Positions 10,167-29,624 of a stretch of 32,000 bases of DNA are shown here, one piece after another. The number at the start of each line of letters is the position of its first letter. Within the stretch, counting starts at the first letter, position 1. The notes under the pieces are model-generated. The model was given only the letters and a program-made list of their open reading frames with translations. It searched no databases and had not been told where the DNA came from. The stretch is from Okeania sp. (GTDB lineage Bacteria > Cyanobacteriota > Cyanobacteriia > Cyanobacteriales > Microcoleaceae), in contig NZ_JAYKGW010000042.1 in assembly GCF_035285525.1 (NCBI RefSeq), forward strand, positions 31,669 to 63,668, in the 5' to 3' direction. The translations under genes and the position numbers were made by a program.

Positions 10167-10267
10167 AGTTGAATTATTACATAAAAAAACCTTTTTTAAT
10201 TATGAATTATGCTTTGCTAAAACACATTTTAAATGGGTTTTACCTGACACAAATTTTATTTATGAGC

Positions 10268-10360
10268 GGAAAATCAAGGTATAATGCCTCTCCTTTTAAG
10301 AATAAAAAAAGAATATTTTCTTATTTTAAATCCTCTGGTTAAAATCCAGAGGTAATTATC
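10268..10360 (+). repeat. two-hairpin element, type 2, copy E
   Basis: aaaatcaaggtataatgcc, then a weak hairpin, an A-run and the perfect hairpin cctctgg-ttaaaat-ccagagg (10332-10352). It contains TATAAT at 10280-10285. Confidence 0.65.
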
Positions 10361-10384
10361 CATTATTAATTATTAATTAATTAA

Positions 10385-10876: not shown

Positions 10877-10976
10877 CCACTTCCCTTTGGATATATTGTA
10901 GCATTTATTGCGGAAAAAGTCTTTTTGCTATTTTTAGGGAGTAAGGAGTCATTTCGGTTATCAGTTATCAGTACCT

Positions 10977-11060
10977 CTCAAAATGGTAGAGTTTTGACTC
11001 TAACTGCGAGAAAATTTGGCCGCAGTAGATACTCTAAACTGTTCCCAGTTCAGTGTTCCC
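10977..11060 (-). repeat. R2 family copy 4 (inverted)
   Basis: The reverse complement reads gggaacactgaactgggaacagtttagagtatctactgcggccaaattttctcgcagttagagtcaaaactctaccattttgag. Confidence 0.8.
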
Positions 11061-14113: not shown

Positions 14114-14180
14114 GTTAGGTTTGTTTGAGGTTTAAGTCCTAAATTTTACCAAAAAAATGGGTTGAAAGGTAAACATTTTA

Positions 14181-14226
14181 TAATTAATAATTAACAATTA
14201 ATAATTAATAATTAATAATTAATTAG
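14181..14226. repeat. AT-only heptamer repeat (ATAATTA)n
   Basis: Direct reading. The same repeat type occurs at 10363-10392 and 21251-21279. Confidence 0.8.
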
Positions 14227-14341
14227 CCAAAAATGAGGTATAAAGCCTCCTCTTTTAAGGGCATGAAAAAATATTTAACTCAGTATTTCAAGCTTCCGAG
14301 TTTAGTCGGAGGTTCACTCTCTACTTATAACTGAAATTACC
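14227..14341 (+). repeat. two-hairpin element, type 1, copy A
   Basis: It reads ccaaaaatgaggtataaagcc, hairpin 1, atgaaaaaa, cagtatttcaag, hairpin 2 (cttccga-gtttag-tcggagg), then ttcactctctact...ctgaaat. Confidence 0.75.
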
Positions 14342-14383
14342 TCTTATTATTAAAGAATAGGGTTGGCTAAAAATAGTTTTTTT

Positions 14384-14421
14384 CTTTATGAATGGATAAG
14401 CTTTATACTTTTATTTTTCGG
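14384..14421 (-). repeat. two-hairpin element, 5' fragment (copy G)
   Basis: The reverse complement reads ccgaaaaataaaagtataaagcttatccattcataaag. Confidence 0.5.
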
Positions 14422-14477
14422 TAATTATTTAGGGTTTGCTGATTTATCGGGAACCGTAAAAGTCTTTTTGCATTTGG

Positions 14478-18517: not shown

Positions 18518-18523
18518 TTTTTA

Positions 18524-18660
18524 CCGAAAAAATTGGGGATAAAGCTTCCCTCAAAAAGGGGATGAAACAAATATTCGATTCAGTATTTCAAGCCTCTGAT
18601 TTTCCTAGGTCATGCTGCGCAAATAGACAGAGATACTGATAACTGATAACTGAAATGACC
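18524..18660 (+). repeat. two-hairpin element, type 1, copy C (starts 7 nt after the argS stop)
   Basis: It reads ccgaaaaaattggggataaagcttccctcaaaaaggggatgaaac...cagtatttcaagcctctg...cagagatactgataactgataactgaaatgacc. Hairpin 2 carries a longer loop insert. Confidence 0.7.
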
Positions 18661-21033: not shown

Positions 21034-21166
21034 AAACTTTGAACAAAAAGGAATAAATGATAGAAATAACTATCTAAAATTAATTGAAGCAGCTATTTTA
21101 ATCATTCAGCCATCAGCTATAAGCTAACAGCTTTGAATTAAGTGGTTTTCCAAAATAGATTTCCTA

Positions 21167-21487
21167 GTTGAAAGAAATAGGGAAAGGGGAACAGGAAGAA
21201 ATAATTGATAATTTATCAACTAAGATTCGATATTTATAATCTAATATTTCAATAATTAATAATTAACAATTAATAATTACCAAAAAATTAGGTATAAAGC
21301 CTCCCCTGGTTCGGGGATGAAAAAACACTTAACTAAGTATTTCAAGTCTCCGACTTTAGTCAAAGGTTCACTCTCTACTATCTACTGATAACTGAAGTTG
21401 AAATAGGGAAAAGGGAACAGGAAGAAATAATTGATAATTTATCAACTAAGATTGGATATTTATAATCTAATATTTCAATAATTAATA
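21167..21487 (+). repeat. ~92-bp direct repeat pair, period 230 bp, flanking two-hairpin copy B
   Basis: gttgaaa(gaa)atagggaaa.gggaacaggaagaaataattgataatttatcaactaagatt.gatatttataatctaatatttcaataattaata occurs at 21167-21261 and 21397-21487. Confidence 0.8.
21280..21396 (+). repeat. two-hairpin element, type 1, copy B
   Basis: It reads ccaaaaaattaggtataaagcct, the perfect hairpin cccc-tggttc-gggg, atgaaaaaacacttaactaagtatttcaag, a decayed hairpin 2, then ttcactctctact...ctgataactgaag. Confidence 0.8.
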
Positions 21488-21488
21488 G

Positions 21489-21580
21489 TTACCCCTTCTT
21501 ATAAAGAAGAGGATTGACTAACAAAACTCTTTTTTCTTTTTCCTCCATGAATGGAGGGGCTTTATACCTTAATTTTTTAG
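21489..21580 (-). repeat. two-hairpin element, type 2, copy F
   Basis: The reverse complement reads taaaaaattaaggtataaagccc, the perfect hairpin cctcca-ttca-tggagg, an A-rich stretch, then the hairpin cctcttctt-tat-aagaagggg. Confidence 0.65.
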
Positions 21581-21771
21581 TAATTAATTTTGCTTATGAA
21601 ATTATCAAATTAATTTTGCATAAGCACTTATTAACTTATGATAATACCAAAAAAGGCATTAGCTTCTCAAGAGAATTAAAATTTATGTTTGCGTTTGCGT
21701 AGCATCCCATAGGGAAGCATTCCCCAGGAAATGCTGAATAATTAAACTCATTTAATACCTATTTATTTTCC

Positions 21772-22547: not shown

Positions 22548-22629
22548 TGCGGATGAAGGGAATCGAACCCCCACTTCCGAAGAAACTAGAACCTAAATCT
22601 AGCGCGTCTACCAATTCCGCCACATCCGC
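22548..22629 (-). tRNA. tRNA-Leu (anticodon UAG)
   Basis: 82-nt cloverleaf read by hand. Acceptor GCGGATG/CATCCGC; D arm GCG-GAATTGGTAGA-CGC; anticodon stem CTAGA/TCTAG with loop TTTAGGT. It has a long variable arm with a TTCG loop and a T loop TTCGATT (the T stem needs two G-U pairs). Discriminator is A and CCA is not encoded. Confidence 0.85.
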
Positions 22630-29370: not shown

Positions 29371-29500
29371 GTCATTTCAGTTATCAGTTATCAGTTATCA
29401 GTAGAGAGTGAATCTCCGGCTTTAGTCGGAGGCTTGAAATACTGAATTAAGTGTTTTTTAATCTCCGAACAAAAGGAAGCTTTATACCTAATTTTTTAGT
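29371..29500 (-). repeat. two-hairpin element, type 1, copy D
   Basis: The reverse complement reads taaaaaattaggtataaagcttccttttgttcggagattaaaaaacacttaattcagtatttcaagcctccgactaaagccggagattcactctctactgataactgataactgataactgaaatgac. Confidence 0.8.
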
Positions 29501-29624
29501 AAAAATGCAACTTTTTAAACCGATAAAATTGAAAAAGTTAGCATCTTACATTAACTAAAACAGAAAAATTAAGCAACTATTTTTTCAACTATTTCCTTTG
29601 CAACACCCCGTTCATGCTTATTCT

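Follow-up and report, generated by a model that had tools for sequence, protein, structure and literature searches.

REPs are single palindromes of 20-40 nt with a GTAG/CGTC head, or inverted pairs of these. IS608 of Helicobacter pylori, which moves by 'peel and paste' with a Y1 HUH TnpA, is cleaved 3' of TTAC, 19 nt 5' of the foot of its left hairpin; this TTAC is recognised by a guide, AAAG, at +16..+19, and GAAT, located 5' of the right hairpin, serves the right site, TCAA, in the same way (PMC3201880, PMC5934647). The pairs stated for IS608, A+16:T-3 and A+17:T-4, imply the register g1:c-3, g2:c-4 and g4:c-1, and a preference for TTAC^C (carets mark insertion junctions throughout) has also been reported (PMC5934647). 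Palindrome-associated transposable elements (PATEs) have been described in Haloquadratum walsbyi and other haloarchaea (PMC3119063).

Here we analyzed a family of short two-hairpin elements in a 32,000-nucleotide stretch of cyanobacterial DNA, hereafter the window (G000:C42:31669-63668), which belongs to a 6.5-Mb, 260-contig assembly of 35% GC and of which 62% consists of ORFs of at least 120 aa. The earlier note on this DNA had described seven copies with a TTAC left flank and had offered two readings, namely non-autonomous IS200/IS605-type (PATE-like) elements and mobile promoter or small-RNA cassettes, or both. We found that the first reading accounts for insertion at TTAC, the lack of target duplication and terminal inverted repeats, the imperfect subterminal hairpins, and guides that lie in the IS608 register. 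The elements are therefore very probably non-autonomous members of the IS200/IS605 family, that is, PATEs with IS608-like ends. They form a new and very abundant cyanobacterial family within a known class, and they reveal no new mechanism.

Copies in the window and across genomes

All seven copies (A to G) exist and lie about where the earlier note had placed them, with boundaries that we refined as follows:

14227-14340, + strand: copy A, type 1; its left flank, TTAG at 14223-14226, is a mutated TTAC
14242-14245 and 14289-14292, + strand: left guide AAAG and right guide CAAG of copy A
14246-14265 and 14293-14312, + strand: hairpins 1 and 2 of copy A
14313-14336 and 14337-14340, + strand: right linker and terminal TTAC of copy A
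21281 to ~21396, + strand: copy B, type 1, the focal copy (nhmmer match 21270-21397, E 2e-34)
21277-21280, + strand: TTAC of copy B, target and predicted left cleavage site, outside the element
21296-21299 (+16..+19) and 21343-21346, + strand: left guide AAAG and right guide CAAG of copy B
21300-21319 and 21347-21366, + strand: hairpin 1 and the decayed hairpin 2 of copy B; they are followed by a heptamer tail with a degenerate or truncated right terminus that lacks TGAC
18525-18659, + strand: copy C, type 1, a variant with a long hairpin-2 loop (nhmmer E 1e-25); TTAC at 18521-18524 precedes it and its terminus is TGAC
29371-29498, - strand: copy D, type 1; TTAC at 29499-29502 and terminal TGAC at 29371-29374
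~10258-10383, + strand: copy E, type 2/3, decayed (type-2 profile E 6.5e-21)
21474-21579, - strand: copy F, type 2; TTAC at 21580-21583
14341-14420, - strand: body of copy G, type 2; its own TTAC adjoins at 14421-14424
~14176-14226, - strand: heptamer tail of copy G, (TAATTAT)n on this strand, parted from the body by copy A
10940-10980, - strand: tail-only fragment, (CTGATAA)n-CTGAAATGAC, a motif that also occurs without the element

Copy E has AATG as its guide and lacks both TTAC in the left flank and a clear right terminus. Copy F has a CCTCC/GGAGG hairpin 1, the right guide CAAT, hairpin 2 and a heptamer tail with a TGAA end, and an empty-like site for it lies at C6:19179-19290. Copy G had been taken for a fragment. 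It is instead a whole type-2 element interrupted by the insertion of copy A: when copy A was deleted in silico, copy G became one contiguous match to the type-2 profile (model positions 7-128, 44.5 bits), whereas the matches to copy G are split when copy A is left in place. The site that copy A entered is TTAC-like (now TTAG), on the opposite strand of copy G, at the junction between the foot of its hairpin 2 and its tail, and copy B sits at the equivalent TTAC next to a type-2 tail.

Around the focal copy, window positions 21166-21491 form a local duplication with a period of 226 nt and 97% identity. In each unit, a type-2 tail accompanies a repeat (21174-21265; 21400-21491) from yet another dispersed family, and unit 1 is followed by copy B and unit 2 by copy F. 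A tandem duplication with subsequent precise excision of one copy of B is a possible history of this arrangement. The sole Rfam match in the window is a tRNA gene at 22548-22629 (- strand, 58 bits).

Although the seven copies are real, a family of seven is far too small, as nhmmer finds hundreds of copies in the genome. Specifically, a profile built from four copies gave 310 genome matches, and an 80-copy type-1 profile gave 535, of which 307 have E < 1e-5; full type-1 copies number ~150-180 in the 6.5-Mb genome. Copies E, F and G fall in a sister group, types 2/3, with 455 profile matches genome-wide and ~200 relatives. Types 1 and 2/3 combined occupy 70.7 kb, or 1.09% of the genome, and the copy counts are far higher than expected by chance. 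Every near-full type-1 copy (155/155) is intergenic with respect to ORFs of at least 120 aa. The 5' block, the two hairpin positions and the A-run first recognized in the window belong to the consensus of the whole family, and the extra features of type 1 (CAGTATTTCAAG and the (CTGATAA)n-CTGAAAT tail) likewise hold as family-wide consensus features. The left part of the type-1 consensus reads TTAC^CAAAAAATGAGGTATAAAG-CCTCCCC-TTTTAA-GGGGATG-AAAAAATATTTAACTCAGTATTTCAAG, and the right part continues with CCTCCGA-CTTTAG-TCGGAGG-TTCACTCTCTA(CTGATAA)nCTGAAATGAC^. The element is 114-135 nt long and contains neither tnpA nor tnpB.

Most copies are old: the median identity to the consensus is 82%, the median identity to the nearest neighbor is 88%, and only 12 copies have a neighbor at 97% identity or more. 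Many copies occur in all 11 other genomes of the same genus, a set that contains one single 7.8-Mb chromosome, and they are mostly at non-orthologous positions. Across the order, matches at E <= 1e-5 were found in 26 of 141 sampled genomes, representing 20 of 79 genera. Several of these carrier genomes have at least 24 scored matches each, and in some the match scores are near-uniform, suggesting recent bursts. A 15-mer of the element is present in Okeania, Trichodesmium and Dapis assemblies, in a scan of low specificity. The genome analyzed belongs to a filamentous cyanobacterium of the Trichodesmium/Okeania lineage. The elements account for a share of its non-coding DNA, a fraction that is typically unusually large in this lineage, and exact boundaries for several hundred repeats are now available to annotators.

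Two kinds of smaller repeat are found within the elements. Many type-1 copies contain an inserted 15-nt unit, ACGGTTCCCGAGAAA, at TTTAAC^TCAG (e.g. G000:C160:17699-17837 and C5:12666); the reverse complement of this unit, TTTCTCGGGAACCGT, resembles the insertable unit TTTATCGGGAACCGT (compare window 14435-14469). The other, a small element of 30-160 nt with the form GCGGTCG...variable...CGACCAAGAGAAA, is repeatedly nested in the A-run just past hairpin 1, in ~20 type-1 and type-2 copies (e.g. G000:C223:27795-27981 and C183:5648-5863). Haloquadratum PATEs are likewise targeted by small repeats, of which this nested element is reminiscent.

Insertion boundaries, guides and hairpins

To find empty sites, we deleted each copy, starting at the first base 3' of TTAC and ending with the terminal xAC, and searched the genome for an ungapped match spanning the junction. 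Paralogous empty sites exist because many copies inserted inside other dispersed repeats. We found them for 43 of 144 type-1 copies, window copy D among them, and for 13 of 74 type-2/3 copies, in both groups with TTAC or TGAC retained. In a hand-checked example, the empty site reads TACTTTTAC^GGTTCC and the filled site TACTTTTAC^GAAAAAAGAGG...CTGAAATGAC^GGTTTCC. For copy D, the filled GCATTTTTAC^GGTTCCGG corresponds to the empty GCACTTTTAC^GGTTCCCG at G000:C173:10075-10198 (82% over 124 nt), and a type-2/3 example pairs C144:5935-6068 with C36:15447-15565 (88% over 119 nt). The comparison of filled and empty sites that the earlier note had called for therefore shows that exact removal of the element recreates uninterrupted sites. 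Because the empty sites keep TTAC, this tetranucleotide is the target left in the flank and not part of the element, nor does it merely belong to a longer conserved left arm, a possibility that had been raised as an objection. The TTAC left flank seen in the window extends genome-wide, with TTAC in 76 and TGAC in 30 of ~150 copies, and the base 3' of the insertion point is C in 53%, T in 23%, A in 18% and G in 6%.

Within copies, the variable second base of the left T-N-A-C is uncorrelated with that of the right T-N-A-C, and the same holds for the bases that follow the two tetranucleotides, indicating that insertion duplicates at most the invariant AC of the target. A 3-4-bp target duplication (ACC or TNAC) was rejected on this ground. 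AC is invariant at both element ends, where a 2-bp AC duplication is indistinguishable from an element that ends in AC. The proposed lack of terminal inverted repeats is borne out by the asymmetric consensus ends, CAAAAAATGAGG... versus ...CTGAAATGAC; type 3 has inverted AT-rich arrays, and these are confined to the linkers. Together, these observations establish that the elements have moved, with exact boundaries and without target duplication.

The ends follow the geometry of IS608. At the type-1 left end, exactly 19 nt separate TTAC from the foot of hairpin 1, with AAAG at +16..+19. At the right end, CAAG lies directly 5' of hairpin 2 in 80 of ~150 copies, and 79 have a TGAC terminus. Applied to a TGAC terminus, the IS608 register predicts the right guide CAAG, as seen in type 1; applied to the guide CAAT of types 2/3, it predicts the terminus TGAA, which is present after their (TAATTAT)n arrays. 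The strongest test is the covariation between the left guide and the flank, because the flank is not inherited together with the element: of 141 copies with A at guide position g1, 109 have T at flank position c-3, and of 49 copies with C at g1, 33 have G there (Fisher p = 1e-18). A:T guide/site combinations are also enriched at the right end (p = 0.01). There is one exception, in which TGTG replaces AAAG, still at TTAC (~13 of 151 near-full copies, ~30 left ends genome-wide). The TATAAAG that had been read as a -10-like box contains the left guide AAAG, which explains its conservation, and the two hairpins start alike (AAGCCTCC) because both would be recognition hairpins with their guides.

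The earlier suggestion that structure rather than sequence is maintained in the hairpins holds at the level of the family. In a tool-made alignment of 40 copies, with the two hairpins and six guide/site pairs counted jointly, 80.5% of cells pair, compared to 33-51% with slid partners, and 33 cells are compensatory, a count that none of 500 shuffles reached (19.9 +/- 3.4). A C.T mismatch is conserved in the stem of hairpin 1 in 102 of 146 copies, which makes this hairpin an imperfect palindrome. Hairpin 2 has compensatory changes, and its upper stem alternates between C:G and T:A, between G:C and either A:T or T:A, and between A:T and G:C. Folding energies of whole elements are unexceptional for the type-1 copies in the window (z from -0.6 to 0.05), and copy F has z = -2.2. 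End geometry, complementarity and covariation of guides and sites, and hairpin maintenance are all directly observed.

An outer helix (TCAGTA/TACTGA or ATTTCA/TGAAAT) was considered as the right hairpin and rejected, as its four 5' bases misfit the terminus; the CAAG beside hairpin 2 fits it, and we therefore took hairpin 2 as the right hairpin. The right linker, from hairpin 2 to the predicted cleavage site, is composed of heptamer repeats and measures 15-129 nt (median 29), or 24 or 31 nt in the 14 youngest copies (at least 92% identity to the consensus). Similar arrays of 36-64 nt make up the left linker of type 3.

Candidate transposases and alternative readings

We infer a single-strand mechanism and a Y1 (HUH) enzyme for these elements. 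In this mechanism, a TnpA supplied in trans would excise the top strand as a single-stranded circle, which would reinsert 3' of TTAC (or TGAC) on single-stranded DNA without duplicating the target. The cleavage sites would be chosen through DNA-DNA pairing rather than by protein: AAAG (+16..+19, 5' of hairpin 1) would pair with TTAC at the left or target site, and the four bases 5' of hairpin 2 would pair with the 3' terminus of the element (CAAG with TGAC in type 1, CAAT with TGAA in types 2/3). A cumulative strand walk of orientation relative to replication revealed no significant pattern (p = 0.10; 136 loci, one complete related chromosome).

We infer mobilization in trans because the cognate transposase was not found. 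A tnpA or tnpB gene flanked by the same ends, proposed earlier as something to look for, was present neither in the genome nor in the sampled relatives, in a search that covered draft assemblies and a limited sample of relatives. Specifically, the draft genome contained no LE-tnpA/tnpB-RE arrangement with element ends (left and right halves 0.3-6 kb apart), and element ends were absent from 33 tnpA loci of the genus, where flanks match only at the background rate, from 13 tnpA loci of five other carrier genomes and from the 10 TnpB loci of the genome itself. Most sampled genomes of the same genus encode intact IS200/IS605 TnpA. The genome analyzed here has one decayed IS200 tnpA and no intact IS200 TnpA. 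The decayed IS200-type element (locus L129, G000:C34, 1330-2010, - strand) has a tnpA interrupted by a stop codon and two hairpins at each end (...TTAAAGCTCAAGTCCCTGAAAAGGGACTAAAAATACTTAGTCCTCTCAAGAGGACT...), in a layout like that of the mini-element with a different sequence.

It could be argued that the elements are a REP/REPIN-like family that depends for its maintenance and movement on a domesticated, single-copy RAYT-type Y1 enzyme rather than on an IS-borne TnpA. The high copy number, strictly intergenic location and age of the family are indeed REP-like, and the genome encodes one bona fide RAYT and two RAYT-like proteins that score under the cut-off (C100, 261 aa; C116, 187 aa) and lacks an intact IS200 TnpA. 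However, the bona fide RAYT gene (G000:C23:40160-40774, within locus L132, 1000-2230; 204 bits against NF047646) is flanked on both sides by arrays of its own, different REP family (GTAGGTTGGGTTGAGGCACGAAACCCAACA...), which has a GTAGG head (GTAGGTTGGGTT...), and is thus a separate Y1/REP system. Neither of the two RAYT-like genes has flanks related to the elements, and the C100 gene lacks element-like hairpins on its flanks. Moreover, the element has two distinct ends of IS608 geometry and not a single GTAG/CGTC palindrome or an inverted REP pair, and we consider this explanation unlikely. Directly upstream of the 261-aa RAYT-like gene are five tandem units of ~62 nt (tagaaaatctgacatccgtatatccgtggcaaaatctctgtctagctctttttct; locus L130, G000:C100, 1100-1390). 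A DDE or serine (IS607-type) transposase that acts at a preferred TTAC^C, with AC as a 2-bp duplication or crossover dinucleotide, would account for the AC on both sides of every well-preserved copy. Such an enzyme is highly improbable here, given that the elements have no terminal inverted repeats, that the right terminus is complementary to the right guide in two subfamilies, and that the identity of a base 16 nt within the element tracks that of the flank base two before the junction, which neither mechanism predicts.

The elements might also, or instead, be mobile promoter, 5'-UTR or small-RNA cassettes. In that case a transcript beginning a few bases past TATAAA would cover hairpin 1 and the A-run, and hairpin 2 would either terminate it or let it continue into the downstream gene. 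In addition to the conserved TATAAA box, this is suggested by orientation: the ORF downstream runs in the same direction as the element in 104 of 150 cases (p = 2.5e-6) and upstream ORFs are unbiased (72 versus 76), spacers between tandem genes split 56 versus 29 (p = 0.0045), in ~16 copies the end is no more than 25 nt away from an ORF start, and the tail motif CTGAAATG often adjoins start codons, even apart from the element. On the other hand, TATAAAG is accounted for by the guide AAAG and its neighbors, no suitably spaced -35 element is found, the downstream ORF lies at a median distance of ~315-340 nt, and the Rfam search of the window returned no family matching the elements. A cassette role therefore seems rather unlikely to us; the published Trichodesmium dRNA-seq (primary transcriptome) excluded RNAs below 300 nt. 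That the elements face downstream genes, and that the stop-rich tail ...CTGAAATG stands alone at start codons, could mean that they are more than selfish DNA and affect gene expression or are used in it. It is doubtful, in our view, that the elements or their right-end modules serve the host as portable 5'-UTRs, promoters or small RNAs, with arrays made or tolerated by the transposition machinery as unusually long linkers of variable length between hairpin and cleavage site. The (CTGATAA)n-CTGAAAT(GAC) array occurs 267 times in the genome, 156 times outside the element and often directly at an ATG (e.g. window 10940-10980; locus L130, 1430-1470), and contains stop codons in all three frames. 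Overall, we favor non-autonomous IS200/IS605-type elements as the explanation for the family.

Comparison with described elements

Like REP/BIME repeats and REPINs with their RAYT (TnpA-REP) enzymes, the elements are abundant intergenic hairpin repeats, probably served by a Y1 HUH enzyme, in which a tetranucleotide beside the hairpin matters, and RAYT genes are present in their genome. They differ from REPs in that their left and right ends are distinct and their insertion boundaries defined, and they are not GTAG/CGTC-headed palindromes flanking a RAYT gene. The terminal inverted repeats and target-site duplication of classical DDE MITEs are also absent from them.

The elements and IS608 both retain the target and left cleavage site TTAC in the flank, have 19 nt between TTAC and the hairpin foot with the left guide AAAG at +16..+19, place the right guide in the four bases 5' of the right hairpin with the same pairing register to the terminus, and lack inverted repeats and target duplication; a preference for C after the insertion point is similar in the two. 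In contrast to IS608, the elements carry no tnpA or tnpB within their 114-135 nt, and their right site is TGAC or TGAA instead of TCAA. Subfamilies that differ by one guide base, at matching tetranucleotides, are a natural counterpart of the IS608 retargeting experiments. The right linker is ~24-31 nt or more and built from heptamer repeats, compared to 10 nt in IS608, and even the shortest, at 15 nt, exceeds the short spacing of right hairpin and cleavage site (~10 nt in IS608) expected of an IS200/IS605-derived element. Given these heptamer-array linkers, one may ask how large a distance between hairpin and cleavage site this transposase family tolerates. The hairpin sequences are unrelated to those of IS608, and the likeness is one of end features and not of traced descent.

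The PATEs of Haloquadratum are, like the elements described here, too short to encode a transposase and free of terminal inverted repeats and target duplication, with palindromes near their termini and a 5' targeting sequence of 4-5 nt, and they occur in numerous heterogeneous copies that are often nested with other small mobile repeats (PMC3119063). Several of them are tied to IS605-type parents by shared ends (PMC3119063), whereas for our elements the parent was not found. The linkers of our elements are filled by heptamer arrays, unlike those of Haloquadratum PATEs, and the host is a bacterium, a cyanobacterium, rather than a haloarchaeon. In summary, the elements fit the definition of PATEs given for Haloquadratum (PMC3119063).
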